Notes: generated from the letters alone by a model not told the origin. Shown: positions 36,859-54,364, counted from the stretch's first letter. The stretch is DNA of 64,000 bases from Candidatus Levybacteria bacterium RIFCSPHIGHO2_01_FULL_37_17 (GCA_001782035.1 MFNL01000001.1:277012-341011), one strand, 5' to 3'. Program-made: numbers and translations.

Positions 36859-37614
36859 GTGGATAATGTTTATTTAAGCGTTGTTATTCCCTCATATAAC
36901 GAAATCGCAAATCTTCGGAAAGGGACACTAGATAAGGTCCAGCACTTTTTGGAAAAGCAAACTTATTCTTATGAAGTATTAATTGTTGATGATGGCTCAA
37001 CAGATGGAAGCTTAGAGTTTGTAGAAAAGTTCATATTGGAAAATCCCAAGTTCAAAATATTGAAAAATCAGCATTTGGGAAAAGCAGGTGCAGTTACCTC
37101 GGGCATGCTAAATGCAAAAGGAGAACTGCGCCTTTTTACAGATATGGACCAGGCAACTCCGATTGAGGAAGTTAATGAGCTGACCCCTTTTACTAAAAAG
37201 GGATACGACGTGGTAATTGGCTCAAGAAGTTCGCATAGAGAAGGTTCTCCCCTGACTCGTCAATTCATATCATTATCCGCAATACTGTTGCGAAGAGTAC
37301 TCGTTGGCTTGAATGAAATATCGGATACCCAATGCGGATTCAAGTTGTTCACAAGAGATGCGGCAGATTTGCTTTTTAATAAAATAAGCGATATTCATCA
37401 TGGTTTCCATAAGATATCGGGCTCTGCAGTTACAGCAGGTTTTGATGTTGAGCTTTTATATTTAGCAAAAATTGAAGGTTTAAAAGTTAAAGAAGTTCCG
37501 GTCGACTGGCTATATGTTGAGACAAGAAGAGTGAGTCCAGTATCAGATTCTGTTAATGGGTTCTTAGATTTTGTAAGAATAGGTATTAATAGATTTAGGG
37601 GTAAATATAGATGA
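36859..37614 (+). CDS. GT2 glycosyltransferase, Dol-P/Und-P-sugar synthase-like (DPM1/GtrB-like)
   Basis: LSVVIPSYNE...VLIVDDGSTDGS, DxD (TDMD), soluble 251 aa. Confidence 0.8.
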   Translation: MDNVYLSVVIPSYNEIANLRKGTLDKVQHFLEKQTYSYEVLIVDDGSTDGSLEFVEKFILENPKFKILKNQHLGKAGAVTSGMLNAKGELRLFTDMDQATPIEEVNELTPFTKKGYDVVIGSRSSHREGSPLTRQFISLSAILLRRVLVGLNEISDTQCGFKLFTRDAADLLFNKISDIHHGFHKISGSAVTAGFDVELLYLAKIEGLKVKEVPVDWLYVETRRVSPVSDSVNGFLDFVRIGINRFRGKYR

Positions 37615-38816: not shown

Positions 38817-40331
38817 ATGGGTTTTATCCGCAAATGGAGAACTGAAATCATTTTTGCGTTGCTTATTGCAGTAGCTTATTTTCTCTCCCGTATTGTACTT
38901 CTTGGTAATCTCCCTATTTTTACAGATGAGGCAATTTACACTAGATGGGCTCAAATAGCATTAAACGATCCCCAGTGGCGTTTTATTTCCCTAACAGATG
39001 GAAAACAACCGATGTTTGTTTGGCTAGCCATGATTTTTATGAAATTTATAGAAGACCCGCTAGTTGCCGCAAGGCTTGTTTCGGTTGCCTCAGGCTTTTT
39101 TACTCTAGTGGGACTTTGGTTTTTAACCTTAGAGCTTTTTAAAAGTAGAAAGGTAGCGTTTATCTCCTCGCTTCTTTATGTCGTCTATCCTTTTGCCGTA
39201 GTGCTTGACCGCATGGCACTATACGACAGTATGGTAGCAACATTTTTTGTTTGGGCGCTTTATTTCTCAGTTCTTTTAGTAAGAAGAATTAGACTAGATA
39301 TTGCCTATACGCTTAGTTTGATTATTGCAGGAGGAATGCTGACTAAAACCGCTAATTTCTTCAGTATATATCTGCTTCCTTTTTTGCTGATCCTTTTTAA
39401 CTTTAGAAAAAAGAATTGGCAGTTTGATTTGAGAAGATTTGTTTTATTTGCCGCTTTCTCAGCTGGCATAGCTTTTTTCTTATACAATGTTTTGCGACTT
39501 TCCCCATTTTTCCATATTATTGATCAAAAGAATGCCGTTTTCGTTTATCCATTCTCAGAGTGGATAAAGCAGCCATTTACTTTTTTCCCTGGAAATCTTT
39601 CAGGACTACTTAACTGGTTGTATGAGTATTTAAAAATTCCAGTCATTGTTTTAATCTTGATTTCACTTGTAAAGTATAAAGAGTTTACGAGAGAGAAATT
39701 ATTGCTTCTTGTTTATTTCTCTGCGCCATTTATTGCGTTGGCCCTCTTTGGAAGACTGGTTTACCCTCGTTATATTTTCTTTATGAGCCTAATGCTTCTT
39801 CCTCTTGCTTCTTTGGGTCTTACATATCTTGTTGATTACGTCATTAAGAAGTATAAAGTTTCAAAAAATTTAGCTTTTTACTTAATCACTGCATTGTTTA
39901 TTGCATATCCTGCTTTTGTTTCATGGCAGTTTATTTTTGATCCTGTAAACGCAAGAATAGCAACAGCGGATAACAGGCAGTATGTAAATGGTTGGCCCGT
40001 CGGATGGGGAGTTAGGGAAAGCGTTGAGTTTTTCAGAAATGAAGCAAAGAACGAAAAGATTTACGTAGCAACAGCTGGAACTTTTGGGCTTCTTCCGGCA
40101 GCTTTAGAGATATATTTAGTTGAGAACAAAAATATTGAGATAAAGGGGCACTGGCCGGTAGATGTATTGCCTAAAGAACTTTTGCAAAAGGCAGAAGATA
40201 TGCCTACCTTTTTAATTACATATCAGAAAGAAAACTTAAATCTAGACGATAACCCAAATTTAAATCTCGTGTTTCAGATAAGACAGGGAAACACAGACTT
40301 TTTTTATAAGGTATTTAGGGTAGAACCATGA
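38817..40331 (+). CDS. ArnT/PMT_2-like GT-C glycosyltransferase (GT39/GT83-like)
   Basis: First extracytoplasmic loop FTDEAIYTRWAQIAL (DE motif), 504 aa polytopic. Confidence 0.65.
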   Translation: MGFIRKWRTEIIFALLIAVAYFLSRIVLLGNLPIFTDEAIYTRWAQIALNDPQWRFISLTDGKQPMFVWLAMIFMKFIEDPLVAARLVSVASGFFTLVGLWFLTLELFKSRKVAFISSLLYVVYPFAVVLDRMALYDSMVATFFVWALYFSVLLVRRIRLDIAYTLSLIIAGGMLTKTANFFSIYLLPFLLILFNFRKKNWQFDLRRFVLFAAFSAGIAFFLYNVLRLSPFFHIIDQKNAVFVYPFSEWIKQPFTFFPGNLSGLLNWLYEYLKIPVIVLILISLVKYKEFTREKLLLLVYFSAPFIALALFGRLVYPRYIFFMSLMLLPLASLGLTYLVDYVIKKYKVSKNLAFYLITALFIAYPAFVSWQFIFDPVNARIATADNRQYVNGWPVGWGVRESVEFFRNEAKNEKIYVATAGTFGLLPAALEIYLVENKNIEIKGHWPVDVLPKELLQKAEDMPTFLITYQKENLNLDDNPNLNLVFQIRQGNTDFFYKVFRVEP

Positions 40332-41977
40332 AATTTCTAAAAAAGAATTTATTGCTTGTACTTCTTTCCTTAATTTTTGCTCTAAGTCTTTTTTTAAGGC
40401 TTTATCAACTAGAGTCTTTTCCAGTTGGATTTCACCAGGATGAAGCAGCCTTAGGTTACAACGCATATTCACTTCTTTTAACAGGGAAGGATGAAAATGG
40501 ACAAAGTTTACCATTGTACATCAATAAGTTTGGTGATAATAATCCCAGCGGATATCATTATCTAGCTATTTTATCTGTAAAATTTTTTGGACTTAATGAG
40601 TTTTCTACCAGGCTTCCCGCAGCTCTTGCGGGGGCAATGCTTATTCTAGCAATATATTTTCTTAGCTTTACAATTTCTAAAAACACCTTGATTAGTTTGT
40701 TTGCCGCTTTTTTTAGTGCCGTTGCCCCATGGAGCATAGTGCTTTCTCGAACTAGTGCTGAAACAATAGTTGCATTATTTTTTGCAATATTAGGTTTTGC
40801 TTTATTTATTCATTTTTTTAGAAACAAGAACATTTTATTTTTATCCGGAAGTGTTTTGTTGTGGATAGCATCGTTTTTAACATATCCAGCACCTCGTTTA
40901 TATGTACCTCTTTTAGTTTTAGCAACGGGAATATATGTATTTAAATATATAAGAGAGAAAAAATTACTAGTACCTTCGTTTGTTTCTTTCACAATACTTA
41001 TTGCTGTTCTTCTATTTCTTATTCTAGGAGTATCAGGAGGTATCGGTCGATTCTCTCAGGTAAGTATATTTACCCATCCTGAAACGAAGCTTGTTTTAGA
41101 AGAGCAAATCAGAGAAGACGGAATGGAGCAAATTCCTCCAACAGTTGTTAGAGCTTTTCACAATAAAATTATCAATCATTCTTATACATTTTTACTAAAT
41201 TATTCTTCTTATTTTTCCCTGGAGTATCTTTTCTTGAAAGGCGGACAACCATTACTCCTTAACGTGCCCCACATAGGGCTATTGTATTTAGTAGAGCTGC
41301 CTTTCATATTAATAGGAATTTATTCAGTAATAAGATCGAAAAATCACTTCTCCAAGCTTCTTTTGATTTGGCTTCTGCTTGCTCCAGCTACTGCAGCTAT
41401 AACATTTGATGATAGTCCAAATGTAAGAAGGGCTTTGGTAATGTTTCCTTTTATAGAAATTCTTGCAGGATACGGAATGCTTTTTTCTATTAAAAAAATT
41501 ACAGAAGAGAAGAATAAAAAAATATTTATTTCTATCTTTATGTTATTTCTTCTGTACAATTCTGTATATTTCCTACATCAATATTTTGTTCACACAAAAG
41601 TTCATAAACCATGGTTTAGAGATGTTGGAGTAAAAGAGATGGTAGCGGAGATAAAAAATTCATATCAAAACTATGACAAAGTTATTGTCACAAATGCTAC
41701 TAGAGGAATACATCCTTTAATCCTCTTTTACATGAAATATGATCCTGTGACGTATCAAAAAGAAGGTTCAGCCAAAGACGCGGATTATAGCGGATTTGGA
41801 AAATTCTTTTTTGTTCCACAGGACTGCCCGTCAGTAAATAGGGATCCTGATTTTCCTGATTTTAAATCTGCAATTTTTATAGATAAAGGAGTCTGCCCGT
41901 TTATTGAGGGGAAAAACTACGAAATAATATATCGAGGTGATAAAACCCCCGTGTATAGAATTGTCTATGAAGATTAA
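40328..41977 (+). CDS. ArnT/PMT_2-like GT-C glycosyltransferase, paralog A1
   Basis: GFHQDEAALGYNAYSLLLTGKDENGQSLPLYINKFGDNNPSGYHY loop-1 motif; 549 aa. Confidence 0.75.
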   Translation: MKFLKKNLLLVLLSLIFALSLFLRLYQLESFPVGFHQDEAALGYNAYSLLLTGKDENGQSLPLYINKFGDNNPSGYHYLAILSVKFFGLNEFSTRLPAALAGAMLILAIYFLSFTISKNTLISLFAAFFSAVAPWSIVLSRTSAETIVALFFAILGFALFIHFFRNKNILFLSGSVLLWIASFLTYPAPRLYVPLLVLATGIYVFKYIREKKLLVPSFVSFTILIAVLLFLILGVSGGIGRFSQVSIFTHPETKLVLEEQIREDGMEQIPPTVVRAFHNKIINHSYTFLLNYSSYFSLEYLFLKGGQPLLLNVPHIGLLYLVELPFILIGIYSVIRSKNHFSKLLLIWLLLAPATAAITFDDSPNVRRALVMFPFIEILAGYGMLFSIKKITEEKNKKIFISIFMLFLLYNSVYFLHQYFVHTKVHKPWFRDVGVKEMVAEIKNSYQNYDKVIVTNATRGIHPLILFYMKYDPVTYQKEGSAKDADYSGFGKFFFVPQDCPSVNRDPDFPDFKSAIFIDKGVCPFIEGKNYEIIYRGDKTPVYRIVYED

Positions 41978-43595
41978 AAAGCATTTCTTATTCCTTCTTT
42001 TAATTCTTGCCATAGCTTCAATATTGCGTCTATGGCAACTGGGAGTAAATCCTCCGAGTCTTGATTGGGACGAAGCCTCACTGGGTTACAATGCCTATTC
42101 AATTCTTAAGACCGGAGCAGATGAATATGGGAATTTTCTTCCAACTTCCATAAGGTCTTTCAATGATTATAAACCTGCAGCATATGTATATTTAACAATT
42201 CCATCTGTTTTTATATTCGGGCTCAACGAATTTGCCGTTCGTCTTCCGTCCGCAGCCTTGGGGATACTAACTGTTCTTTTCACATATCTTTTAGTCAAAG
42301 AACTATTCAAAGCTAAAAATTTACAATTTGCCGAAGCCGCAGCGCTTGTCAGCGCATTGCTACTGGCAATTTCTCCCTGGCATCTACAATTTAGTAGGTC
42401 AGCTTTTGAAGGAAACGTTGGGGTTTTCTTTTTTGTCGGAGGAATATATTTTTTACTTAAAGCTTTAAATAAAGGATTATTTTTTGCGCCTGCTTTTATT
42501 TTTTTCGTACTTACTTTTTACTCCTATCATAGTTTTCGGTTGGTAACTCCATTGTTTCTGTTGTTTTCCATATTTTATTTTAGAAAGGAAATATTGGAGA
42601 AAAAAAAGCATTTTCTTGTTTCCGCACTGTTTGCCTTGATCTTAACCCTGCCTTTATTGCTTAGTATTTTTACCAACTTAGCCCGTTTTTCAAGCGTTAC
42701 CATTTTTAATTCTTCAGGAATTCTCGATACATCTATAAAGCAGCTGGAACTAGATAGAGAAAGAGAAAATGTTCTTGGAGAGATTTTCCATAACAGAAGA
42801 GTGGTCTACGCGCAGAACATTTTAGATGGCTATCTTTCACATTTTGATCCTGTTTTCCTTTTTCTAAGGGGAGATTCGGTGGAACGGCATCATGCAATAG
42901 GAATGGGAATGCTTTATATAATTGAACTTCCATTTTTACTAGTGGGAATTTTTTATCTTTCGCGAAAAAAAGATACCGGAAGGCTTATTTTACTCATCTG
43001 GCTCTTAGCTGCACCTGCCGCAGCTTCCTTAGCAACGGGGACTCCCCATGCAATACGCGCTATTGCCATGATTCCTGTATTGCAAGTTATTACGGCTATT
43101 GGCATTGTCGCTTTCTACGAGTGGAATAAAAAGGCAAAATTAGGAAAATTTATTATTTTTACATTTTCCGCTTTGTTTTTATTAAATGCTCTTTACTATT
43201 TGGATATGTATTATGTCCACACACCTATTGAAAATTCAAAATACTGGCAATATGGATACAGACAAGTGTTTGAATATGCAAAGGAAAGGCAAGATAAGTA
43301 TGACAAAATAATCGTAACTTACAAATACGACCAACCATACATCTATTATTTGTTTTTTAATAAAATTGAACCGTCTTGGTACCAGAAGAATTGGGATTAT
43401 AACAATGATGGAGAAATAGAAAGAATGACCAGAATTATCGGAAAATACGAATTTAGAAATATTGATTACGCAGTAGATTCAAAGGCAAAAAATGTTTTGT
43501 TAATCGGGACACCTGATGAGATATCGCAGAATGCAAGCATAAAAGAAATAAATTTTTTGGATGGAACCGTTGCATTTAGGATAGCAGAAAGTTAA
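41967..43595 (+). CDS. ArnT/PMT_2-like GT-C glycosyltransferase, paralog A2
   Basis: LDWDEASLGYNAYSILKTGADEYGNFLPTSIRSFNDYKPAAYVY; start set at ATG overlapping upstream stop (ORF track 41937). Confidence 0.75.
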   Translation: MKIKKHFLFLLLILAIASILRLWQLGVNPPSLDWDEASLGYNAYSILKTGADEYGNFLPTSIRSFNDYKPAAYVYLTIPSVFIFGLNEFAVRLPSAALGILTVLFTYLLVKELFKAKNLQFAEAAALVSALLLAISPWHLQFSRSAFEGNVGVFFFVGGIYFLLKALNKGLFFAPAFIFFVLTFYSYHSFRLVTPLFLLFSIFYFRKEILEKKKHFLVSALFALILTLPLLLSIFTNLARFSSVTIFNSSGILDTSIKQLELDRERENVLGEIFHNRRVVYAQNILDGYLSHFDPVFLFLRGDSVERHHAIGMGMLYIIELPFLLVGIFYLSRKKDTGRLILLIWLLAAPAAASLATGTPHAIRAIAMIPVLQVITAIGIVAFYEWNKKAKLGKFIIFTFSALFLLNALYYLDMYYVHTPIENSKYWQYGYRQVFEYAKERQDKYDKIIVTYKYDQPYIYYLFFNKIEPSWYQKNWDYNNDGEIERMTRIIGKYEFRNIDYAVDSKAKNVLLIGTPDEISQNASIKEINFLDGTVAFRIAES

Positions 43596-43608: not shown

Positions 43609-45036
43609 ATGGCAAAAAGTAAAAAAGAAGTCGTCGTTTTAGGAGCAGGTCTTGCAGGGTTAGCATCTGCTCACGAATTAGCAAAAGCCGGTTACAAGGT
43701 TAGAGTTTATGAAATGTTTGATTTTATAGGTGGTTTGGCGGCTACCATAAGAAAAGGAGAATTCGCATTTGATACAGGTCCTCACCGCTGGTTTGCAAAA
43801 TCAGATTTCGTGAATAACTGGATGCTTGATTTAATGAAAGGCGAGATAAAAAGCGTCAAGCGGCTTACCAGAATTTATTTCGACAACAAGTACTTCTTTT
43901 ATCCTATTAAAATCTCAAATGCCCTTTTAGGTATTGGTCCAATTAAGGCTTTTATGGCTATTTTTGACTATGGTGTTTACAGAATACGAGCAAGAGTACT
44001 AAAGCCAAAAATTGTTTCTCTTGAAGACGGATTTGTAAATCAATTCGGCAGAACTTTATACAATACTTTCTTCAAAAGATACTCTGAAAAGCTTTGGGGG
44101 AGGCCCAATACACAGATTTCAGCAGATTGGGCAGGACAAAGAACTAGAGGTTTTAACCTTTTAACCGTAGTAAAAGATTCTCTATTTAAATCCAAAAAAA
44201 TTGTTTCTTTTGTTGATGAATTTCAGTATCCGGAAAAAGGCGTTGGAAGAATAGCGGAAAAACTAGCCGAAGAAGTTGAAAAAATGGGCGGAAAAATTTA
44301 CCTGAATGCAAAAGCAGTCTCTTTTAATGCAAACGGAAAAAACAAAATGACAGGTGTAGAAATAGAGGTAAAGGGAAAAAGGATAATGGAAACAGCCGAC
44401 TTTTATATAAACACAATTCCATTGCCACACCTGATTAAATTTATGAATCCGAAAGCACCAAAAGAAATTATCAAGGAAAGTGAAACGTTAAAATTTAGAT
44501 CCGAAGTACAAGTGGCACTATTTATTAAAAAAACTAATATTACACCTGATGTGTGGATTTATGTACATTCGAAAGAAATATCATTCATGAGGTTTATGGA
44601 AATGGATAATTGGAGTAATGTTCTTTCTCCCAAGGGTACTACTACTTTAGTTTTTGAAGTTGCTTGTAACGAAGATGATGAAACCTGGAACAAAAGCGAC
44701 AAAGAGCTTATTGAAATGGTTAAAAATGACTACATTAAAGAGTTTAAAACAATTGAGCAGAAAGATGTTTTAGGAGGTTATGTCCATCGTGTTCCCTTTG
44801 AATACCCTGTTTACCATATCGGCTACACCGATTCTTTGGATAAAATAAAAGAGTTCTTAGATAATTTTACAAACCTTCAGACAATAGGAAGAAACGGGAT
44901 TTTCAGATATAACAACATGGACCATTCAATAGAAATGGGCCTTTATGCAGCCTGGAATATAATTGAAGGTAAAAGGAAACATGATCCTTACTTGGTTAAT
45001 ATTGAAAGGGAATATCTTGAAGAAAAGAAGCTCTAG
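43609..45036 (+). CDS. FAD-dependent oxidoreductase (amine-oxidase/UDP-galactopyranose-mutase-like fold)
   Basis: N-terminal dinucleotide-binding VVVLGAGLAGLASAHELAKAGYKVRVYE...IGG; 475 aa soluble. Confidence 0.65.
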   Translation: MAKSKKEVVVLGAGLAGLASAHELAKAGYKVRVYEMFDFIGGLAATIRKGEFAFDTGPHRWFAKSDFVNNWMLDLMKGEIKSVKRLTRIYFDNKYFFYPIKISNALLGIGPIKAFMAIFDYGVYRIRARVLKPKIVSLEDGFVNQFGRTLYNTFFKRYSEKLWGRPNTQISADWAGQRTRGFNLLTVVKDSLFKSKKIVSFVDEFQYPEKGVGRIAEKLAEEVEKMGGKIYLNAKAVSFNANGKNKMTGVEIEVKGKRIMETADFYINTIPLPHLIKFMNPKAPKEIIKESETLKFRSEVQVALFIKKTNITPDVWIYVHSKEISFMRFMEMDNWSNVLSPKGTTTLVFEVACNEDDETWNKSDKELIEMVKNDYIKEFKTIEQKDVLGGYVHRVPFEYPVYHIGYTDSLDKIKEFLDNFTNLQTIGRNGIFRYNNMDHSIEMGLYAAWNIIEGKRKHDPYLVNIEREYLEEKKL

Positions 45037-46643
45037 TGAAAAAAGTTTATATTTATATTTTTATCCTTATAGCCTTGTCGCTTTTAGTCATTGGCCCTTT
45101 TTTTAAACCGGGATTTTTCGAGACCCATGATGGTGGCTGGGCAGTAGTACGCTTAGGGGCAATGCACAGAGCCTTTGCCGACCTTCATCTTCCGGCAAGA
45201 TGGGCAGGAGAGCTTAACTTCGGATATGGATATCCTCTTTTTGAATTTACCTATCCGCTACCCTATTATCTTGGTGAAGTTATAAACCTTTTAGGTCTTG
45301 GCTTAGTGGATTCAATAAAGGCAGTATTTGTCTTTAGTGTGCTTACCTCTGTAGTAGTGATGTTTTTTCTGTCAAGAAGAATATTTGGAAACCTAGGAGC
45401 ATTTATTTCTGCCGGTTTTTATTTATTCGCAAATTACAGATTAGTTAACCTTTACGTCAGGGGTTCTATTGGAGAATCCTTGTCTCTTGTTTTATTTCCT
45501 ATGCTCTTCTTTCTTGTTTTGTCTAGCATAAGTAAGCCTACAGCGGTAAAGACCTCTCTCTTTGCATTGTCTTTTGCTGCACTACTACTTACCCACAATG
45601 TTACTGCCTTGATTTTCAGTCCTTTTTTGCTTGCTTTCTATTTATTCCTGCTTTATCGGCAAAGAAATAGAGAAAATATTATACATATGATTTTAGGCTT
45701 TGGATTAGGCGGACTTATGTCATCTTTTTTTCTGTTTCCTGCGCTTCTTGAGAAAAATTATATAAGCCTGGGCGTTAATGCTATTAGTAACATAAAAGAG
45801 CATTTTTTATCTGTCCAGTCACTTATTTCAACTCCCTGGAACTACGGAGCCTTTGCCTCTTCTGAAAGATTTTCGGCTGAAATCGGGGCCTTCCCTCTGC
45901 TGGCATTTGTCTTAGCAATTTCTGTTCTTATAAAAATGAAAGATAGCTTAACCCGCAACGTTTTTTTGTTTTCATTCTTCAGCGTTATAATCCTTATTTT
46001 TCTGATGCTACCCTTTTCTTATTCTTTTTATAAACTTCCTCTTTTTTCAAATATCGATTTCCCCTGGAGACTCCTTACTCCTCTGATTTTTTTCCTCAGT
46101 TTTTCTCTTGGAATATTGGGAATGAAAAAAATATGGGGTTTAATAGGCCTGCTTTTGCTTATGGCAACTGCAATAATAAATCTTCCACATGCAAAGCCAA
46201 ATAATTACATTTCTTACCCGGATGAATATTACCTTACAAACCAGGCAACAACAACATCAAACGATGAGCTTATGCCTATTTGGGTAGAGAAAAAGCCAAA
46301 GCAACGGTACGAAAGAAAAGTTGAAGTATTGTCGGGAGATGCGGGTGTAAATGTTATTTCGCAAGAAACGGCAAAGACAGTTTTTGAAATAAATGCAGAA
46401 GAAGAAAGTAGAATTGCTCTTAATACAATATATTACCCTGGGTGGGAGTTAAAAGAGAATGGAAGTAAAATTGATTTCAGTTATGATAATCCAGAAGGTA
46501 TAATTGAGTTTGACATCAGAGAGGGGACGCATAGGATAACTGCAGAATTCAAAAACACGTCCTTAAGAAGCTTTGCTAATTTCCTATCGATACTGGGCAT
46601 CGCGGGGGTAATAATATTATGGGGGAAAAAGTTCGTAAAATAA
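45036..46643 (+). CDS. large polytopic membrane protein, PTPS-related (PF10131-like) family, putative GT-C-type transferase, paralog B1
   Basis: N-terminal FFETHDGGWAVVRLGAMHRAF...PARWAGELNFGYGYPLFEFTYPLPYY block; >12 TM plus C-terminal beta-rich domain. Confidence 0.5.
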   Translation: MKKVYIYIFILIALSLLVIGPFFKPGFFETHDGGWAVVRLGAMHRAFADLHLPARWAGELNFGYGYPLFEFTYPLPYYLGEVINLLGLGLVDSIKAVFVFSVLTSVVVMFFLSRRIFGNLGAFISAGFYLFANYRLVNLYVRGSIGESLSLVLFPMLFFLVLSSISKPTAVKTSLFALSFAALLLTHNVTALIFSPFLLAFYLFLLYRQRNRENIIHMILGFGLGGLMSSFFLFPALLEKNYISLGVNAISNIKEHFLSVQSLISTPWNYGAFASSERFSAEIGAFPLLAFVLAISVLIKMKDSLTRNVFLFSFFSVIILIFLMLPFSYSFYKLPLFSNIDFPWRLLTPLIFFLSFSLGILGMKKIWGLIGLLLLMATAIINLPHAKPNNYISYPDEYYLTNQATTTSNDELMPIWVEKKPKQRYERKVEVLSGDAGVNVISQETAKTVFEINAEEESRIALNTIYYPGWELKENGSKIDFSYDNPEGIIEFDIREGTHRITAEFKNTSLRSFANFLSILGIAGVIILWGKKFVK

Positions 46644-48277
46644 TACCTTTATTAATACTTTTAGTGCTTACAATTCCTGCATTTATGCCAGTGCTTGCTC
46701 CCGGATTTTTCCCAATGCATGATAATACTCAACCTTCAAGAGTATTTGAAATGGCAAAGGCCTTAATGGATGGTATGTTTCCTGTTAGATGGAGTGCTGA
46801 CTTGGGGTTTGGTTATGGTTATCCTCTTTTCAATTATTATGCTCCACTAGTATATTATGTTGGAGCTACCTTTAACCTAGCAGGATTTAACGCTTTAGAC
46901 GCAACAAAGATATTACTTGCCTTAGGATTTATTTTATCTGCATTAGCCATGTACATTTTTGCCAAAGAGTTTTTAGGCAAGCTTGGAGGAATTATAGCCG
47001 CACTTTTTTATGTTTATGCACCATATCACGCAGTGAATATATATGTTAGGGGAGCAGTTTCTGAGTTTTGGGCTTACGGGTTTATCCCACTTGCTTTTTG
47101 GGGGCTTTATAAGATTCATCAGACAGAAAAATTTAAGTATGTAGCTTTTACAGCCCTATTCTTTGCTCTTATTGTTCTTTCTCACAATTTGGCGGCGTTT
47201 ATCACTGCACCTTTTCTTCTTCTTTACTCATTTTTTCTTTTCTTTAAAAAAAGAAATATAAAACTATTTTATTCAGTTGGTATTGGTTTGCTGCTTTCCG
47301 CTTTTTATTGGGTCCCGGCTTTAATAGAAATCCCCTTTTTTAATGTCATGTCTCAAATAGGACCCGAGAAGGACATACGCTTTCATTTTGTGTGCTTACA
47401 GCAGCTCTGGACGAGCCAGTGGGGATTTGGCGGATCAATACCAGGGTGCGTTGATGGAATGTCCTATATGATAGGAAAATATCATATTCTTGCAGCAATT
47501 TTGGCTGTTATGGTAGCACTTCTGGAGTATAAAAATAAGAAAGTCGAGAAGGGTATTTTTCAAAACATTGTCCTATTCTTCGCTTTTGGAGTTTTAAGCA
47601 TTTTCTTGATGACGTCATACTCTCAATTTATTTGGGAGCTTGTTTCCCCTATGAGGTTTATTCAGTTTCCCTGGAGGTTTCTCCTGATAACGTCTTTTAC
47701 ATTTTCATTTGTTGCAGGATCATTATTTTACCTTTTTAGAAAGAGATTAAACTCTTTTTCGTATATCATACTTGCGTTAATAGTTTCGATTGCAATAGTC
47801 TTTCTCTATTCGAAGTTTTTTGTTCCTCAGGAGGCAAACTCTAAAAATGCCTCAGATTATGTTTCAAAAAATGCGTTAAATTACAATATTTCTAAAATAT
47901 CACACGAATTTATGCCAAGTAACTTCAAAATACCCGGAAATATAAATGAGGTTTCTAATCTCAATAATATTGAAGATGAAAGTATTGTAGTAGTTAATTC
48001 TAAAAAAAGGACTGGAAGAATCGAATTAAACTTAAGAGTTGAAAAAGAAACCAAAGCTGTTATTCCCATAGCTTATTTTCCCGCATGGAAAGCTTACGTT
48101 AACGGAGAGGAAGTTCCAGTCGAGAAGAATCCTCGCGGAATAAAAGTAAAATTGCCGGAAGGTAAAGTGATGCTAGAGTTTCTCTTCAGAGAAACTCTTC
48201 TGGAAAAATTTGCCAATGTCCTGAGCCTGGCTGGCGTACTAATACTGGCTTACGGTATAATAAGGAAGCCTAAATGA
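46619..48277 (+). CDS. large polytopic membrane protein, PTPS-related family, paralog B2
   Basis: FFPMHDNTQPSRVFEMAKAL...PVRWSADLGFGYGYPLFNYYAPLVYY, same architecture as 45036..46643. Confidence 0.5.
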   Translation: MGEKVRKIIPLLILLVLTIPAFMPVLAPGFFPMHDNTQPSRVFEMAKALMDGMFPVRWSADLGFGYGYPLFNYYAPLVYYVGATFNLAGFNALDATKILLALGFILSALAMYIFAKEFLGKLGGIIAALFYVYAPYHAVNIYVRGAVSEFWAYGFIPLAFWGLYKIHQTEKFKYVAFTALFFALIVLSHNLAAFITAPFLLLYSFFLFFKKRNIKLFYSVGIGLLLSAFYWVPALIEIPFFNVMSQIGPEKDIRFHFVCLQQLWTSQWGFGGSIPGCVDGMSYMIGKYHILAAILAVMVALLEYKNKKVEKGIFQNIVLFFAFGVLSIFLMTSYSQFIWELVSPMRFIQFPWRFLLITSFTFSFVAGSLFYLFRKRLNSFSYIILALIVSIAIVFLYSKFFVPQEANSKNASDYVSKNALNYNISKISHEFMPSNFKIPGNINEVSNLNNIEDESIVVVNSKKRTGRIELNLRVEKETKAVIPIAYFPAWKAYVNGEEVPVEKNPRGIKVKLPEGKVMLEFLFRETLLEKFANVLSLAGVLILAYGIIRKPK

Positions 48278-48990
48278 GTAAATTTGCGGAGTTATCGATT
48301 TTTTTTCCTTTCTGGAATGAGGCGGAAAATTTAGAAAGAGTCATAGAAAAAACAATCCCGGTGGCAGAAAAAGTTGCAGACAAGTGGGAAATAATTATGG
48401 TAGATGATGGCTCCTCTGACTCAACTTTGCAAATAATGCAAAAATTATCGGCAAAAGATAATCGCCTTATTGCGGTCTCCCACGATAAAAACCGTGGTTA
48501 CGGTGCAGCTTTGAAAACTGGTTTTGAAAAAGCAAGATATGAATATATAGTATTTAATGACGGAGATGGGCAGTTTGATTTTTCTGAAATTACAAAATTT
48601 ATGGATAAAATTGATAGGGCAGACGTAGTTATCGGCTACCGAAAGACAAGACACGACCATCCTTTTCGGCATGTCTTAATGAACTTGTTAAAAATTTGGG
48701 ATTATATTTTTTTCGGTTTTAGGTTTAAGGATATAGATTGCGGTTTTAAATTATTCAAAAGGCAAGCAATACAAAGGATAATTCCGCTTTCTTCGGAAGG
48801 CGCAATGATAACAACAGAGATTCTTGCAAGGGCAAAAAAGGCCAACCTTAACATTCTTGAGACAGAGGTTCATCATTATCCAAGATTATACGGCGACCAA
48901 AGCGGAGGGAACTTAAGGGTAATTTTGCGGGCGGTCAAAGAAAGTCTGCTTCTTTGGAAAGATTTAAATTTTAATCATGCAAGAAATTGA
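48274..48990 (+). CDS. GT2 glycosyltransferase, polyprenol-phosphate sugar synthase-like
   Basis: LSIFFPFWNE...IIMVDDGSSDST, DxD (NDGD); 238 aa. Confidence 0.8.
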   Translation: MSKFAELSIFFPFWNEAENLERVIEKTIPVAEKVADKWEIIMVDDGSSDSTLQIMQKLSAKDNRLIAVSHDKNRGYGAALKTGFEKARYEYIVFNDGDGQFDFSEITKFMDKIDRADVVIGYRKTRHDHPFRHVLMNLLKIWDYIFFGFRFKDIDCGFKLFKRQAIQRIIPLSSEGAMITTEILARAKKANLNILETEVHHYPRLYGDQSGGNLRVILRAVKESLLLWKDLNFNHARN

Positions 48991-50431
48991 CATAGCTGCA
49001 GTAAAGCAGAAATCTATTCATGGAATAATCGCTTTAACATCGCGAACATTTTTTATTCAGCTTGTAAATTTTTCGGCTAGTTTACTTCTCACAATTTTTC
49101 TGGCCCCTGCCATTTTTGGTGTTTTTTTTATCGTTTCAGCTGTTATTGCTTTTCTCACATATTTCTCCGATATAGGATTGGCTGCTGCTTTGATACAAAA
49201 AAAAGAAAGCTTAACAAAAGAAGATTTAAAAACAACATTCACAATCCAGCAGGCTCTAGTATTGTCCCTTGTTACTCTCGCGCTTTTATTTTCAGAGCGA
49301 ATAGGTTACTTTTACAATCTAGGAGAAGATGGTGTATTTCTATTTCAAGCATTAGCAATTTCATTTTTTCTATCTTCTTTAAAGACCATTCCCTCAATAA
49401 TTTTAGAACGTGATTTAAACTTTACAAAACTTGTAATTCCGCAGATTGTTGAAACTGTGTTTTTTAACGTTATTGCTGTAGGTCTTGCAATTAATGGATT
49501 TGGAATTGCAAGTTTTAGTTATGCAGTATTGGCACGAGGCTTTTCAGGTCTTGTAGCAATTTATTTAATAAGCCCTTGGAAGCCGGCATTAGGGTTTTCT
49601 TCCGTAAGCGCAAAAAAGCTTTTATCTTTTGGCGTACCTTTTCAGCTCAATAGTTTTCTTGCACTTATTAAGGACGATTTGTTTATCGCATTTTTGGGAA
49701 AAATACTTCCATTTGCCCAAGTTGGTTACATCGGATTTGCTCAAAAATGGGCATTTATGCCGTTGCGTCTCGTCATGGACAATGTAATAAGGATAACGTT
49801 CCCTTCATTCTCAAGGCTTCAAGATGAAAAGGAGATTTTAGGCAAAGCAATAGAAAAATCTGTATTTGCAGCAAGTTTTATCATTTTTCCCGCTCTGGCC
49901 GGTCTTTTTGTATTGTCGCCTTATTTCATAGAAATCATTCCGAGATACACAAAATGGGAGCCGGCACTTTTATCTGTATGGTTTTTCTCTTTGAGCGCCG
50001 CGCTTTCTTCTGTTTCAACACCCCTTACAAACGCACTTAATGCCATAGGCAAAATTAAGATTACCCTTTATCTTATGGTTTTTTGGACAATTGCTACATG
50101 GTCATTAACCCCGCTACTAATTTTTCTAATGGGATTTAACGGTGTTGCAGTCGCATCGGCAATAATTGCGGTTTCAACGATTGTGGTTGTATTTATAGTA
50201 AAAAGGCTTATTCAGTTTAATATAATAAATGCCCTAACCAATCCAGTAGCAGGGTCTATTATCATGGGAGCTATCCTTTTCTTTATAAGTCCTTATTTTG
50301 TACAGGGCTTGTTTAGTCTCATTTCCGTTATTGTATTCGGAGCTGTGATATACTTTTTAACAGTTTATATTCTAGGGCGGGATCAAATTAAGAAAGATTT
50401 TGTTTTAATCAGACAAAATCTAAGGAGTTAA
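48977..50431 (+). CDS. Wzx-like oligosaccharide flippase (MOP superfamily polysaccharide biosynthesis protein)
   Basis: 484 aa, ~12-14 TM helices with Wzx-like N-terminal pattern; embedded in GT cluster. Confidence 0.6.
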   Translation: MQEIDIAAVKQKSIHGIIALTSRTFFIQLVNFSASLLLTIFLAPAIFGVFFIVSAVIAFLTYFSDIGLAAALIQKKESLTKEDLKTTFTIQQALVLSLVTLALLFSERIGYFYNLGEDGVFLFQALAISFFLSSLKTIPSIILERDLNFTKLVIPQIVETVFFNVIAVGLAINGFGIASFSYAVLARGFSGLVAIYLISPWKPALGFSSVSAKKLLSFGVPFQLNSFLALIKDDLFIAFLGKILPFAQVGYIGFAQKWAFMPLRLVMDNVIRITFPSFSRLQDEKEILGKAIEKSVFAASFIIFPALAGLFVLSPYFIEIIPRYTKWEPALLSVWFFSLSAALSSVSTPLTNALNAIGKIKITLYLMVFWTIATWSLTPLLIFLMGFNGVAVASAIIAVSTIVVVFIVKRLIQFNIINALTNPVAGSIIMGAILFFISPYFVQGLFSLISVIVFGAVIYFLTVYILGRDQIKKDFVLIRQNLRS

Positions 50432-50432
50432 A

Positions 50433-51350
50433 ATGGCAAAACTTTCAGCAGTAGTAAGCGTTTACAACGAAGAAAAAAATATTGAAAAATGTCTAAAATC
50501 CCTCCAGTTTGCTGATGAAATTATTGTAGTAGACAATGGTTCAACAGATAAAACTGCAGAAATTGTCAAAAAATATACAGATAAAATCTTTTCACAAAAA
50601 AACGAACCTCAAAAGATTGATATTCTCAAAAATTTCGGTATCGAGAAAGCTACTAGTGAATGGATACTTATTATTGACGCGGACGAACAGGTAACTCCCG
50701 AACTAGCCAACGAAATCCGTTCAATACTCAAAGAACAAAGAACAAAGAACAAAGAACAAATTACTGGTTATTGGATACCTAGAAAAAATTATATTTTTGG
50801 AAAATGGATTCAGAACGCTGGCTGGTATCCTGATTTACAGCTAAGGCTAGTAAAAAGGGGTAAGGGAAAATATAATTCATTACACGTCCATGAGCCCTTG
50901 AAAGTGGAAGGAGACACAAAACAGCTCTCGCAATTTATAAACCATAACAACTACGAAAATATTTCTCAATTTCTTTCTAAAACTGCTGTTTATGCCCGAA
51001 ATGAAGCGGATTCTATTTTAAAAAATGATTATAACTTTTCTTATCTTGATGCAATAAGGTTTCCAATAAAAGAGTTTTTAAGCAGGTTCTTTGCAAGAAA
51101 AGGATATAAAGACGGACTTCACGGATTAATGCTTTCAATGCTTATGGCTTTTTACCATTTTATCATTTTTGCCTTCATATGGGAGAAGAAGGGATTTACA
51201 GAAGAAAACGCCGATAATTTCCTAGAAGAGGTAGGCGCTGAACTTAAAAGAGGTGGAAATGAAATAGATTACTGGATAAAAAAAGAAAAATACGACAATA
51301 TAAAAAACCCTCTTAAGAGAAGCCTCGCAAAAATTAAAGGAAAAATATAG
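50433..51350 (+). CDS. GT2 glycosyltransferase (subfamily with YWIPRKNY...PDxQLRL motif), contains heptanucleotide SSR
   Basis: LSAVVSVYNEEKNIEKCL...IIVVDNGSTDKT, DAD motif (IDADEQ). Confidence 0.8.
   Translation: MAKLSAVVSVYNEEKNIEKCLKSLQFADEIIVVDNGSTDKTAEIVKKYTDKIFSQKNEPQKIDILKNFGIEKATSEWILIIDADEQVTPELANEIRSILKEQRTKNKEQITGYWIPRKNYIFGKWIQNAGWYPDLQLRLVKRGKGKYNSLHVHEPLKVEGDTKQLSQFINHNNYENISQFLSKTAVYARNEADSILKNDYNFSYLDAIRFPIKEFLSRFFARKGYKDGLHGLMLSMLMAFYHFIIFAFIWEKKGFTEENADNFLEEVGAELKRGGNEIDYWIKKEKYDNIKNPLKRSLAKIKGKI
50729..50760 (+). repeat. (CAAAGAA)x4.5 heptanucleotide tandem repeat inside GT2 coding sequence
   Basis: caaagaacaaagaacaaagaacaaagaacaaa read directly; in-frame as KEQRTKNKEQ; unit length not a multiple of 3. 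Confidence 0.85.
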
Positions 51351-51353
51351 CTA

Positions 51354-52262
51354 GTGAAAAAAGTTTTTATTTCAATTCTTACTTTTAACGACAATAAGTC
51401 TACGTCAGAATGCTTGGATAGTATAGAAAATCTTAAGAAGCAAGACTTCGGGCTTTTTGTAGTAGTAGTGGACAACGCATCAGCAAACGCTTTTTCTGCT
51501 AAAAAAACGTACAAGAATTTTAGCCTAAAAATAATCAGAAATGAAAATAATCTTGGCTTTTCAGGGGGACACAATGTAGGAATTAACCATGCACTTTCTC
51601 AAGACGCAGATTTTGTAGTAATTCTAAATAACGATACAGTTCTTGGTAATAATCTGATAGTAAATATGCTAAGTGGATTTGATAAAGAGGTAGGAGTAGT
51701 TGTTCCTAAAATTTATTTTGCCAAGGGACACGAATATCATAAGGAAAAGTATACAGAGGCTGATTTGGGAAAAGTAATATGGTATGCAGGTGGAAAAATG
51801 GACTGGAAAAATATTTACGGTCAGCATATAGGAGTAGATGAAGTTGATAGTGAAAAATTTAATAAGGAAGAGGAAACAGAACTCGCAACAGGTTGCTGCA
51901 TGATGGTTAAGAGGGAGGTGTTTGGGAAAGCAGGTCTTCTAAATGAAAAATACTTTCTCTATTACGAGGATGCCGATTTTAGCATGAAAGCAAAAAGAAA
52001 AGGCTTTAAAATAATATATAAGCCGGATGCTTTTCTTTGGCACATAAATGCAGCTTCTACGGGAGGCTCTGGTTCCGAGCTTCAGGACTATTATATAACA
52101 AGAAACAGATTATATTTCGGTGTCAGACACGCTCCCTTAAGGGCAAAGGCAGCTTTATTTAGAGAAAGCCTAAGACTAGCAAGATCTGGAAGAAAATGGC
52201 AGAAAGAGGCTGTGAAAGACTTTTACAAAGGCATTATGGGTAAGGGGAGATATAAAAAATGA
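51354..52262 (+). CDS. GT2 glycosyltransferase (rhamnosyltransferase/WbbL-like)
   Basis: VVVVDNASAN motif, DxD (YEDAD), 302 aa. Confidence 0.8.
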   Translation: MKKVFISILTFNDNKSTSECLDSIENLKKQDFGLFVVVVDNASANAFSAKKTYKNFSLKIIRNENNLGFSGGHNVGINHALSQDADFVVILNNDTVLGNNLIVNMLSGFDKEVGVVVPKIYFAKGHEYHKEKYTEADLGKVIWYAGGKMDWKNIYGQHIGVDEVDSEKFNKEEETELATGCCMMVKREVFGKAGLLNEKYFLYYEDADFSMKAKRKGFKIIYKPDAFLWHINAASTGGSGSELQDYYITRNRLYFGVRHAPLRAKAALFRESLRLARSGRKWQKEAVKDFYKGIMGKGRYKK

Positions 52263-53014
52263 GTACTGTTGAAGTTTCAGTAATAATAATTGCACGAGAT
52301 GAAGAAGAAAGAATCAGGGAGTGTATTGAAAATTTATCTTTTTGCAAAGAAATCATCCTTGTAAATAACGATTCTCAAGACAAAACGCCCCAAATTGCTG
52401 AAAGCCTTGGCGCAAAGGTCGTAAATTTTAAAAGCAGTAATTTTTCAGAACTTCGCAATTTAGGATTAAAACAGGCGAGTTACAAGTGGATACTCTATAT
52501 AGACGCTGATGAAAAAGCGGATGAAACTCTTAAAAAAGAAATAGGCAGAGCAATAAATTCAGATGAATTTAACGCATATTTTATAAAGAGGAAGAATTAC
52601 TATTTAGGCAGTAACGAATGGCCATACGCAGAAAAAATACAAAGGTTATTTAAGAAAGATAAACTAGGTGGCTGGTTTGGACAACTTCACGAAAGTCCAA
52701 GCGTAGAGGGTAAGGCAGGGGAATTACAAGGTTTTCTTCTCCATAAAACCCACAGAAGCCTGGAGGAAATGGTAGATAAGACAAACGAATGGTCTGAAAC
52801 AGAGGCGTTTCTTAGATACAAAAATAATCATCCAAAAATGAGCTGGTGGAGATTCCCAAGAGTAATGATTACGGCTTTCCTTAGTTCATATATTGCCCAG
52901 GGGGGATATAAAGCAAAAGGAGTGGGCTTAATTGAGAGCATATACCAGGCGTTTAGTGCGTTTGTTACCTATGCTAAGCTTTGGGAATTACAAAAAAAAG
53001 AGGAAAAAAATTAG
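52259..53014 (+). CDS. GT2 glycosyltransferase (same subfamily as 50433 and 61604 genes)
   Basis: VSVIIIARDEEERIRECI...ILVNNDSQDKT, DAD (IDADEK), YFIKRKNYYLG. Confidence 0.75.
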   Translation: MSTVEVSVIIIARDEEERIRECIENLSFCKEIILVNNDSQDKTPQIAESLGAKVVNFKSSNFSELRNLGLKQASYKWILYIDADEKADETLKKEIGRAINSDEFNAYFIKRKNYYLGSNEWPYAEKIQRLFKKDKLGGWFGQLHESPSVEGKAGELQGFLLHKTHRSLEEMVDKTNEWSETEAFLRYKNNHPKMSWWRFPRVMITAFLSSYIAQGGYKAKGVGLIESIYQAFSAFVTYAKLWELQKKEEKN

Positions 53015-53247
53015 TTCTTATTTTCCCAGAATTTTAATTCGGAAAACTTCATTCGCTTATTGGCAAAATAGAATAGATATGCAAGTTCCAAAATTCCCAA
53101 TGTATTTAAAACTAAAATAGCAACGAACCAATTCCTCTGTTTTAAATTTGCTGCTCTCCAAAGAGCTATTCCTTTCCAAAGCAATGTCCAAAGATAAGCG
53201 ACAAAAAGCAGAAAAGAGGGAAGCTGGGGCAATATAAATGATTCCAT
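53011..53247 (-). CDS. small two-TM membrane protein, DUF5652-like
   Basis: LWTLLWKGIALWRAANLKQRNWFVAILVLNTLGILELAYLF resembles DUF5652 consensus from memory; only minus-strand gene inside the GT array. Confidence 0.4.
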   Translation of the reverse strand: MESFILPQLPSFLLFVAYLWTLLWKGIALWRAANLKQRNWFVAILVLNTLGILELAYLFYFANKRMKFSELKFWENKN

Positions 53248-53311
53248 AGATAAATTATAAATAAATATCTCTTCTTATGCAACGAGGGATGAAAGTTGAT
53301 AAAATAAATAT

Positions 53312-54364
53312 ATGAAAATAGGATTTTACGATCCATATCTTGATACCTTAGGTGGTGGAGAAAAATATATTTTTGATTTGGCGTTATGTCTTTCAAATGA
53401 TAACTCGGTTTATATTTTCTGGAACGATGCTTCAATTTTACAAAAAGCAGAAGAACGTTTTGGAAAAAAACTAAATAAGATTTCTCTTGTGCCAAATACA
53501 TTTTCTAAAGGAGCATCTTTATTTTCAAAATATAGACAAACCTCCAAATACGATTGTATTTTTTATATAAGCGATGGTAGCATTCCTCTTCTGTTTGCTG
53601 AGAAAAATATCCTTATCTTTCAGTTTCCAATACCTTGGATAAGAAAAACTTGGCTTTCAAATCTAAAACTAAAAAACATCAATAATGTAATTTGTTACTC
53701 CAACTTTGTTAAAGAGAATATCGACAAAATTCTAAATGTTAACTCTACAGTTCTTCCACCGCTTGTTGAGAAAATAAGTTCAAAAGAAAAAAAACAAAAC
53801 TTAATTGTTTCGGTAGGAAGATTTACAAAAGGCATGAACAAAAAAAAGCAAGAAGTGTTAGTTGAGGTTTTTAAAGAAATGGTAGATGACGGACTAAAAA
53901 ACTGGAAGTTAGTTTTAATAGGCTCTCATCTTGCAGGTGATTTGGATTTTGTAGAAAGCTTAATAAAACAATCTAATGAATACCCAATAGAAATACATAC
54001 AAACGTAAAATACGATGAACTTAGGGATGTATATGCCAAATCAAAAATTTACTGGCATGGCGCAGGCTTTGGAGAGAATCTTGAAAGATCACCTCAATTT
54101 GCAGAGCATTTTGGAATTACTACAGTTGAAGCTATGAGCGCAGGCTGTGTTCCGGCAGTTTTCAATGCCGGTGGACAGAAAGAAATAGTTACAAATGAAA
54201 AGAATGGAATTTTGTGGAATACGACTGTTGAGCTCAAGGAAAAAACAAAAAAGCTCATTGATGATGAAAAACTTCTGAACGAACTGTCTTTGAATGCTAG
54301 AAAAAGCTCTGAAAAATTTTCAGGTGATAATTTTTGCAAAGAAGCAAGAGACATAGTTCTTTAA
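53312..54364 (+). CDS. GT4 glycosyltransferase (GT-B, RfaG-like)
   Basis: C-terminal EHFGITTVEAMSAGCVPAV...GG motif (EX7E-type) typical of GT4. Confidence 0.8.
   Translation: MKIGFYDPYLDTLGGGEKYIFDLALCLSNDNSVYIFWNDASILQKAEERFGKKLNKISLVPNTFSKGASLFSKYRQTSKYDCIFYISDGSIPLLFAEKNILIFQFPIPWIRKTWLSNLKLKNINNVICYSNFVKENIDKILNVNSTVLPPLVEKISSKEKKQNLIVSVGRFTKGMNKKKQEVLVEVFKEMVDDGLKNWKLVLIGSHLAGDLDFVESLIKQSNEYPIEIHTNVKYDELRDVYAKSKIYWHGAGFGENLERSPQFAEHFGITTVEAMSAGCVPAVFNAGGQKEIVTNEKNGILWNTTVELKEKTKKLIDDEKLLNELSLNARKSSEKFSGDNFCKEARDIVL

Follow-up and report, generated by a model that had tools for sequence, protein, structure and literature searches.

Paired and arrayed GYNAYS-family GT-C glycosyltransferases in a conserved gene cluster of a Candidatus Levybacteria genome

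Bacteria of the Candidate Phyla Radiation (CPR, Patescibacteria) have tiny genomes, and their cell envelopes are almost unknown. The stretch of DNA described here, a 64-kb window of a metagenome-assembled genome of Candidatus Levybacteria (Microgenomates, CPR), carries a cluster of ~27 kb (36859–63984) that is kept across Microgenomates and in which all genes, from position 36859 to the window end, are tightly packed on the + strand (Table 1). Searches of Pfam, NCBIfam and the PDB assigned to this cluster eight family 2 glycosyltransferases (GT2), one GT4, a Wzx/MOP flippase, a UDP-galactopyranose-mutase-like flavoenzyme, a YfhO protein and nine further GT-C-type genes. Eleven GT-C-type genes are present in the window, starting at 4988, 37611 (weak), 38817, 40328, 41967, 45036, 46619, 54334, 58278, 59926 and 62401, and ten of these, all except 4988, lie within the cluster. 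Four of them, C, D, G and H, form the two pairs C-D and G-H and belong to one family, recognised by the signature GYNAYS. They are old, diverged paralogues, and the explanation that we favour, with a chance somewhat better than even, is that they are polyprenyl-phosphate-sugar-dependent transferases which would act as separate steps of a conserved envelope-glycan pathway.

All four open reading frames (ORFs) lie head-to-tail on the + strand and match Pfam PMT_2 and/or PMT, which bears out the original prediction, made from the sequence of the window, of two pairs of genes for ~550-aa GT-C proteins. Three of the products are 100% identical to the public proteins A2798_01830 (D, 542 aa), A2798_01900 (G, 552 aa) and A2798_01905 (H, 551 aa), and because of these lengths the starts of D and H were placed at ATG 41967 and ATG 59926, whereas the longest ORFs begin at 41937 and 59920, respectively. 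Both pairs therefore overlap by 11 nt, with the common form TATGAAnnTTAA; of the predicted range of 11–41 nt, the lower value holds at both junctions, and the upper one arises only from the longest-ORF GTG at 41937. No GGAGG-type site was found in the 20 nt before the ATG of D. The motif DE[AV]xxGYNAYS is confined to C, D, G and H; the window's other GT-C proteins lack it. The rest of the loop-1 block had been drawn too generously, as the spacer after GYNAYS is 6 residues long and not 8–10, H has Ala at the position given as Gly, and C reads D-N-N-P-S-G-Y-H-Y, without the [FY]-KP block. Outside this block the proteins had been called clearly diverged, which is an overstatement: all four align end to end with 32–42% identity (E 1e-58 to 1e-135). 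The grouping is not due to chance, since a hidden Markov model (HMM) of the family gives 611–855 bits for the four proteins and <25 bits for every other PMT_2 protein in the window. Along the full length, 30 columns are invariant in 116 aligned family members, namely the loop-1 DE pair and 28 others, and all four genes keep every one; D35-E36 and D52-E53 of loop 1 are invariant in the 116 sequences, C, G and H included. The family is large: a profile search of 1.84 billion representatives (clusters at 50% identity) yielded 6,105 of them at E ≤ 1e-30, and 3,568 matches of the G type and 2,913 of the H type were counted.

A neighbour-joining tree was calculated with 259 full-length members from 80 species-level genome loci and the window (100 bootstraps). 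The four genes fall into separate clades, with bootstrap values of 100% for G, 88% for C, 85% for H and 84% for D; D and H share one superclade, although with weak support (48%). Orthologues in other genomes are 50–68% identical for D, 60–85% for G and 57–75% for H, and in 10 genome loci an orthologue of C (46–56% identity) immediately precedes a D-type gene. As identity to orthologues (50–85%) far exceeds that between paralogues (32–42%) and the clades are separate and supported, the paralogues are old and not recent copies. Recent tandem duplication, which would have undermined the idea of two functional pairs, was rejected on the same figures, and neither pair consists of near-identical sequences. 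In the bootstraps, the unrooted quartet takes the form (D,H | G,C), and (G,H | D,C) never appears.

The AlphaFold2 (AF2) model of D (predicted local distance difference test, pLDDT, 92.8; predicted TM-score, pTM, 0.92) gave 25 matches at E ≤ 1e-3 in a Foldseek comparison with the PDB, all of them GT-C enzymes: STT3/AglB/PglB, which have the best E-values, ArnT, PMT, ALG9/12 and Emb (PDB 7bvf and 7bvh). The membrane domain and the acidic residues of loop 1 are those of the GT-C class A fold. The best superposition was obtained with ArnT (PDB 5ezm; TM-scores of 0.56 for the query, TMq, and 0.57 for the target, TMt; 12% identity), while the Emb chains align over ~405 columns only (TMq 0.38–0.43) and Pmt1/Pmt2/Pmt4 over ~280 columns only (TMq 0.33, 15–19% identity). 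With Pmt1-Pmt2 and Pmt4 (GT39), the proteins share the GT-C_A fold, an invariant Asp-Glu in the loop between transmembrane helices (TM) 1 and 2, present as W-D-E in all four, and matches to Pfam PMT and PMT_2; against the PMT cut-off of 22.7 bits (PF02366), D (33.1) and G (42.7) score above and C (20.8) below, and H has no match. PMTs are obligate homo- or heterodimers that carry mannose from Dol-P-Man over to Ser/Thr. Unlike the family considered here, Pmt proteins are 700–800 aa long instead of ~550 aa and carry a luminal MIR β-trefoil between TM7 and TM8. No Pfam match to the MIR domain was found at E ≤ 0.01 in any protein, and the AF2 model of D contains no β-rich insertion in the membrane domain, where residues 302–319 form an 18-residue loop. 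Strands are restricted to residues 61–70 and to the C-terminal domain (447 to 541), a small extracytoplasmic α/β domain of ~100 residues.

ArnT (GT83) resembles D in size (537 vs 542 aa) and in a similar C-terminal periplasmic domain; furthermore, public annotations call family proteins 'ArnT-like', and an ArnC-like GT2 is present in the cluster. On the other hand, apart from the low identity, the NCBIfam ArnT model NF009784 is matched by G only, with 25.4 bits against a cut-off of 567. Lipid A synthesis is not known from CPR bacteria, nor is ArnT known to depend on a paralogous partner. When the family profile was run against the sequences of the PDB, only a marginal match to STT3 (E 0.007) was returned. 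In view of the fold matches, the missing MIR domain and the wide failure to reach the ArnT model, C, D, G and H represent a separate branch among the class-A GT-C enzymes, so far uncharacterised and resembling PMT chiefly in its Pfam name, with a predicted fold at least as close to monomeric ArnT and to STT3 as to the PMTs. The analogy with eukaryotic PMT1/PMT2, on which the original prediction had built its case for heterodimers, is accordingly thin, and the eukaryotic PMT heterodimer is no better a parallel than monomeric ArnT.

The organisation of the family was surveyed in the 80 genome loci, which are anchored on D/H-type genes and thus biased towards them; for this reason a second sample of 80 metagenome contigs, anchored on G, was drawn. 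A family member lies directly upstream of 61 of the 73 D/H anchors with enough upstream flank, and the junctions in the 80 loci include 37 of type G→H, 11 of type G→D and 10 of type C→D. The longest uninterrupted tandem run comprises two genes in 31 loci, three in 29 and four to six in 10, and the number of family members within 20 kb varies by genome from 1 to 7. About half of the G-anchored contigs have 1–3 extra paralogues upstream of G. Clades follow one another in a set order, such as [11]~[5]~[8]~[7]~[G]~[D] or [G]~[H]~[H']. D-type genes have C as their partner in loci of the Levybacteria type and G in those of the Gottesmanbacteria type, with a gene of clade 9 taking this place in one locus; in other loci the D-type gene directly follows the unrelated gene B, or its nearest paralogue is found ~4 kb off on the opposite strand. 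Seven of the 66 anchors having both flanks are without an adjacent paralogue, and another family member is almost always found within ~5 kb of a D-type gene.

Nine Gottesmanbacteria-type genomes hold 5–7 GYNAYS-family paralogues in ~12 kb, in the first of the two orders given above, with a ~660-aa ORF sometimes inserted between [7] and [G]. Three further loci show a reversed order: a D/H-like gene of clade 12 lies either immediately ahead of G or two genes upstream, and the array ends with a second D/H-like gene, of clade 13.

The overlap of the paired genes had been taken as a sign of translational coupling. Overlaps are generic in this genome, however: 18 of the 37 same-strand junctions in the window and 10 of the 20 in the cluster overlap, most often by 4 nt (ATGA), and those in the cluster include GT2/GT-C, GT-C/GT2 and GT2/flippase junctions. 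Genes B and C overlap in this way (4 nt, ATGA), so that B-C-D is a run of three coupled genes. As proof of pair-specific coupling the overlap was therefore rejected, given that half of the same-strand junctions of the window share it. A fusion protein was looked for among the 150 best-scoring of the 1.84 billion representatives in the profile search, where a two-member fusion would be expected because each full member would score at least 300 bits; none of these is longer than 661 aa. The lack of a fusion is weak evidence against a heterodimer, as an N-in/C-out topology disfavours fusion. Thus, with overlaps generic, runs often longer than two, a changing partner of D and no fusion protein in this sample, pairing as such does not establish a heterodimer.

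The genes for the presumptive donor makers lie next to the pairs. In the GtrA/GtrB/Gtr*, CsbB/GtcA/YfhO and GT136 systems a small GT2 synthase adjoins the GT-C enzyme (PMC11127046), and the same is observed here, where GT2g ends just before G and is followed by G and H, and GT2a opens the block that contains C and D. GT2g matches the Dol-P-Man synthase of P. furiosus (PDB 5mlz) over its full length (E 3e-16). GT2g, GT2a and GT2b match 5mlz, ArnC (PDB 9bhc) and GtrB (PDB 5ekp) over their catalytic domains, GT2g and GT2a both with DPMS, ArnC and GtrB structures and GT2b with ArnC. Their nearest NCBIfam models, AglJ, PgfS, PpgS and ArnC, are all polyprenyl-phosphate glycosyltransferases, with scores below cut-off (for GT2g, AglJ, PgfS and PpgS are the best; GT2b reaches 87.6 bits with ArnC). 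From its sequence, GT2g is likely the maker of a lipid-linked donor, and its orthologues (60–65% identity) were found upstream of G~H in eight loci. In contrast to the three-component systems, no separate GtrA-type flippase is encoded beside the C/D or G/H pairs, the flippase candidates of the window being a GtrA domain that occurs only fused to a GT2 at 3879–5009 and the Wzx/MOP protein at 48977–50431; moreover, there are at least two GT-C genes per GT2 instead of one, and the cluster is far larger. The GT2-GtrA fusion, which directly precedes the PMT_2 gene 4988–6586 elsewhere in the window, also resembles the three-component pattern.

Another parallel is the Pgf operon of S. mutans (PgfS, PgfM1, PgfE, PgfM2), which glycosylates Ser/Thr-rich surface proteins outside the membrane and likewise combines one GT2 with two paralogous GT-C enzymes. 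Their roles are separable, since loss of pgfM1 abolishes glycosylation and loss of pgfM2 only shifts mobility (bioRxiv 10.1101/2024.05.05.592596). PgfS is among the nearest models of GT2g, GT2a and GT2b, but at 67–77 bits against a cut-off of 500, and PgfM1 and PgfM2 belong to the YfhO family and not to the PMT_2/GYNAYS type. In mycobacteria and in Gtr systems, a lipid-linked monosaccharide is made by a small GT2 and then transferred by several GT-C enzymes outside the membrane (PMC11127046). By analogy, the cluster would follow the same logic as mycobacterial arabinan synthesis and the three-component systems of extracytoplasmic glycosylation.

The order of genes around the pairs is conserved as well. 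The arrangement GT2a-Mpt-B-(YfhO)-C-D is kept in Levybacteria-type loci, and two longer orders recur in many loci, namely GT2a-Mpt-B-(YfhO)-C-D-(FAD)-E-F-GT2b-Wzx-GT2c-d-e-GT4-YfhO and GT4-YfhO-GT2f-GT2g-..-G-H-(I/A-like)-E-like-GT2h. Most likely, a small upstream GT2 would load a sugar onto polyprenyl phosphate, and each GT-C paralogue would transfer such a sugar, outside the membrane, to a different position or acceptor, be it an envelope glycan or a Ser/Thr-rich surface protein. Adjacent paralogues would then represent consecutive or parallel steps of one pathway, kept as co-translated operon neighbours, and need not be two halves of one obligate enzyme. For such separate steps speak the arrays rather than pairs, the partner of D that is not fixed, the generic overlaps, the adjacent donor makers and the conserved pathway order; from these we infer what type of donor is used, that the reaction takes place outside the membrane, that the specificities are distinct and that no obligate heterodimer is formed.

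A number of observations weigh against separate steps, and most of them would suit the proposal that G+H and C+D are obligate or preferred heterodimeric GT-C enzymes, like EmbA-EmbB or Pmt1-Pmt2, with translational coupling supplying equal amounts of the subunits and the longer arrays providing alternative partners or higher-order assemblies. We regard this proposal as possible, though clearly short of even odds. The co-occurrence of paired genes across genomes, suggested as a check in the original prediction, turned out to be that of a conserved unit: an H-type gene directly follows G in 60 of the 61 G orthologues with downstream flank in the G-anchored contigs (in the single exception, an H-type gene is still the next family member, some hundred nt further on), in addition to the 10 C→D junctions in the 80 loci. 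Of the 54 G-type genes in the D/H-anchored loci, 50 are immediate neighbours of a D/H-type gene, and the G→H junctions are tight, with 35 of 40 between -35 and +8 nt and a mode of -4 (ATGA overlap). Such near-invariant linkage and order of two old clades, with tight or overlapping junctions in most genomes, is also expected of a stoichiometric two-subunit enzyme. The quartet (D,H | G,C) fits the duplication of an ancestral upstream/downstream pair. Likewise, the distance-matrix (mirror-tree) correlation of G and H (r 0.83–0.88) lies slightly above that with GT2h, YfhO and E-like controls (0.37–0.79), a comparison confounded by shared phylogeny, protein length and the paralogy of the controls. 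It must also be held against separate steps that donor, acceptor and oligomeric state are, for every family member, inferred.

A bacterial precedent for a heterodimer from neighbouring paralogues is available in mycobacterial EmbA-EmbB (GT53, as is the EmbC homodimer); these are adjacent, diverged GT-C paralogues of one operon that use a polyprenyl-phosphate-sugar donor outside the membrane, and EmbA and EmbB are both sequential enzymes and a heterodimer (PMC7305291). Genes C/D and G/H are likewise adjacent and diverged, and the residues they keep suggest that both members of each pair are catalytically intact, as are the subunits of EmbA-EmbB (PMC7305291) and the paralogous subunits of Pmt1-Pmt2 (PMC12705809). 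The Emb proteins differ in their size of ~1,050–1,100 aa, in their C-terminal carbohydrate-binding modules and in the bound AcpM, compared with 542–552 aa and a ~100-residue C-terminal domain here, and EmbB is also active alone (PMC7305291). Further points tell against an obligate pair. Triples occur nearly as often as pairs, runs with an odd number of genes are common, the partner clade of D-type genes varies by lineage, some anchors stand alone even if D-type genes rarely lie far from another family member, and the fold, lacking MIR, is no closer to PMT than to a monomeric enzyme; the overlap and fusion results discussed above point in the same direction, the latter weakly. An assembly line of separate steps and a heterodimer are not mutually exclusive.

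In a wider version of the two-subunit idea, which we consider doubtful, a G-type and a D/H-type protein would constitute a Microgenomates-wide, EmbA-EmbB-like enzyme of independent origin, and the arrays (clades C and 5–11) would supply exchangeable 'upstream' subunits that dock on one shared 'downstream' subunit of the D/H type. If the remaining GT-C families of the cluster are counted in, these ultra-small CPR bacteria would possess an assembly line for extracytoplasmic glycans, of a complexity comparable to mycobacterial arabinogalactan and lipoarabinomannan synthesis.

The variable copy number and make-up of the arrays, in which extra paralogues upstream of G come and go, might alternatively point to interchangeable paralogues of variable specificity that diversify a surface glycan, like the serotype-converting Gtr* enzymes, and that owe their tandem arrangement to duplication and recombination, not to a common pathway. 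The GT-C enzymes of Gtr systems are indeed serotype-specific (PMC11127046), but the clades found here are old and vertically conserved, their order is fixed, and neighbours show no trace of recent duplication or of gene conversion, so that this explanation is unlikely. That some members are non-catalytic membrane partners, such as flippase-associated factors of the Agl23 type or scaffolds, is very improbable: Agl23, a 'flippase activity-associated protein', is the only NCBIfam model matched by all four proteins, yet at 30–36 bits these scores are four-fold under the cut-off of 126, and none of the four proteins has lost the loop-1 DE pair or any other of the invariant residues that mark active GT-C_A enzymes, in a fold that matches catalytic subunits.

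Class-A GT-C enzymes are well known as a class, whereas the GYNAYS family, with >6,000 clusters at 50% identity, has no characterised member, and its paired and arrayed organisation in CPR was not found described in the literature searched. A search for CPR GT-C or PMT arrays returned nothing specific; two CPR genome papers mention only multiple copies of 'dolichol-phosphate mannosyltransferase' GT2. It is noteworthy that ~27 kb of one CPR genome is given to a conserved cluster with 10 GT-C-type genes. The old, ordered and almost always linked paralogues offer, in G+H and C+D, concrete testable units for the question whether GT-C enzymes outside Mycobacteriales work as heterodimers, and for identifying the surface glycan or glycoprotein made by these episymbiont-like bacteria. 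Should the pairs prove to be heterodimers, two-subunit GT-C enzymes would have arisen a second time, independently, in bacteria; if not, the arrays would represent a compact natural library of GT-C specificities.

Table 1. Genes and gene junctions of the glycosylation cluster, with positions in the 64-kb window.
Feature	Position	Strand	Remarks
GT2a	36859..37614	+	DPMS/ArnC/GtrB-like GT2; start of the cluster
Possible GT-C membrane protein, 395 aa	37611..38798	+	Weakly MptA/MptB-like; conserved position
Gene B, 504-aa PMT_2 protein	38817..40331	+	Pfam PMT_2 42.3 bits, E 1.2e-10; family HMM 16 bits
Gene C, 549-aa GT-C glycosyltransferase, clade 4C	40328..41977	+	Upstream member of pair 1; Pfam PMT 20.8 and PMT_2 19.6 bits, both below cut-off; family HMM 611 bits
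C/D stop/start overlap, 11 nt, ATGAAGATTAA	41967..41977	+	Read from the sequence
Gene D, 542-aa GT-C glycosyltransferase, clade 3D	41967..43595	+	Downstream member of pair 1; Pfam PMT_2 46.4 and PMT 33.1 bits
UDP-galactopyranose-mutase-like flavoenzyme	43609..45036	+	Between D and E; Pfam Amino_oxidase, NAD_binding_8
Gene E, 535-aa PTPS_related membrane protein	45036..46643	+	Pfam 35.5 bits; upstream member of the third paralogue pair
Gene F, 552-aa PTPS_related/PMT_2-like protein	46619..48277	+	Overlaps E by 25 nt
GT2b, ArnC-like polyprenyl-phosphate glycosyltransferase	48274..48990	+	PDB 9bhc (ArnC), E 6e-23, residues 6–217
Wzx/MOP-family flippase	48977..50431	+	Pfam Polysacc_synt_3, 171 bits
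Three GT2 (50433, 51354, 52259) and one GT4 (53312)	50433..54364	+	Cytoplasmic glycosyltransferases
YfhO-family GT-C, 766 aa	54334..56634	+	Pfam YfhO 77 bits
GT2f	56637..57536	+	Order YfhO-GT2f-GT2g conserved
GT2g, polyprenyl-phosphate-hexose-synthase-like GT2	57565..58275	+	2 nt upstream of G; Pfam GT2 133 bits
Gene G, 552-aa GT-C glycosyltransferase, clade 2G (bootstrap 100)	58278..59936	+	Upstream member of pair 2
G/H stop/start overlap, 11 nt, ATGAATTTTAA	59926..59936	+	Read from the sequence
Gene H, 551-aa GT-C glycosyltransferase, clade 1H, sister clade to D	59926..61581	+	Downstream member of pair 2; 42% identity to D
GT2h	61604..62404	+	GT2 downstream of H
Gene I, 527-aa PMT_2-like GT-C	62401..63984	+	Related to the 4988 protein (A): 25% identity, E 7e-14

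Of the remaining members of the cluster, gene B had been listed as a distant fifth member of the family, a description with which its PMT_2 match and its low family-HMM score agree. The protein encoded between GT2a and B has no Pfam match, and its NCBIfam scores with crt_membr (36 bits) and MptB (26.6 bits) are both below cut-off; its slot is kept in many genomes. MptA and MptB, to which it bears this weak likeness, are polyprenol-phosphomannose-dependent mannosyltransferases. The closest solved relative of the flavoenzyme is the UDP-galactopyranose mutase (UGM) of PDB 4dsg (E 4e-19, residues 7–451, near full length), and with NCBIfam PRK07208.1-4 ('hypothetical protein') it reaches 436 bits, above the cut-off of 389. 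In loci of the Gottesmanbacteria type, the genes after D encode an epimerase, this flavoenzyme and a GT2, which may point to a donor sugar that is a furanose or is modified in another way. Genes E and F constitute a third overlapping paralogue pair, 32% identical, which had escaped the original prediction; their adjacency recurs in Levybacteria-type loci, and PTPS_related belongs to the Pfam GT-C clan. For the flippase, NCBIfam matches to MOP flippase and O-glycosylation Wzx models are below their cut-offs. Downstream of G~H, I/A-like genes and GT2h are found in most loci.

Outside the cluster, the window contains a two-gene glycosylation module, in which a GT2 fused to a GtrA/DPMS transmembrane domain (3879–5009) overlaps by 22 nt with the gene of a 532-aa PMT_2 GT-C protein (4988–6586); a NAD-dependent epimerase/dehydratase (2926–3882) precedes it. 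On the - strand, at 27082–32122, two neighbouring genes encode surface-type proteins of 322 aa and 1,360 aa, which might be candidate acceptors of O-glycosylation because of their Ser/Thr/Pro-rich stretches and a Ser+Thr content of 26% and 23%, respectively. The larger one contains DUF11, SpaA and SdrD_B domains, and the G+C content of this region is 0.42, compared with ~0.35 in the rest of the window.

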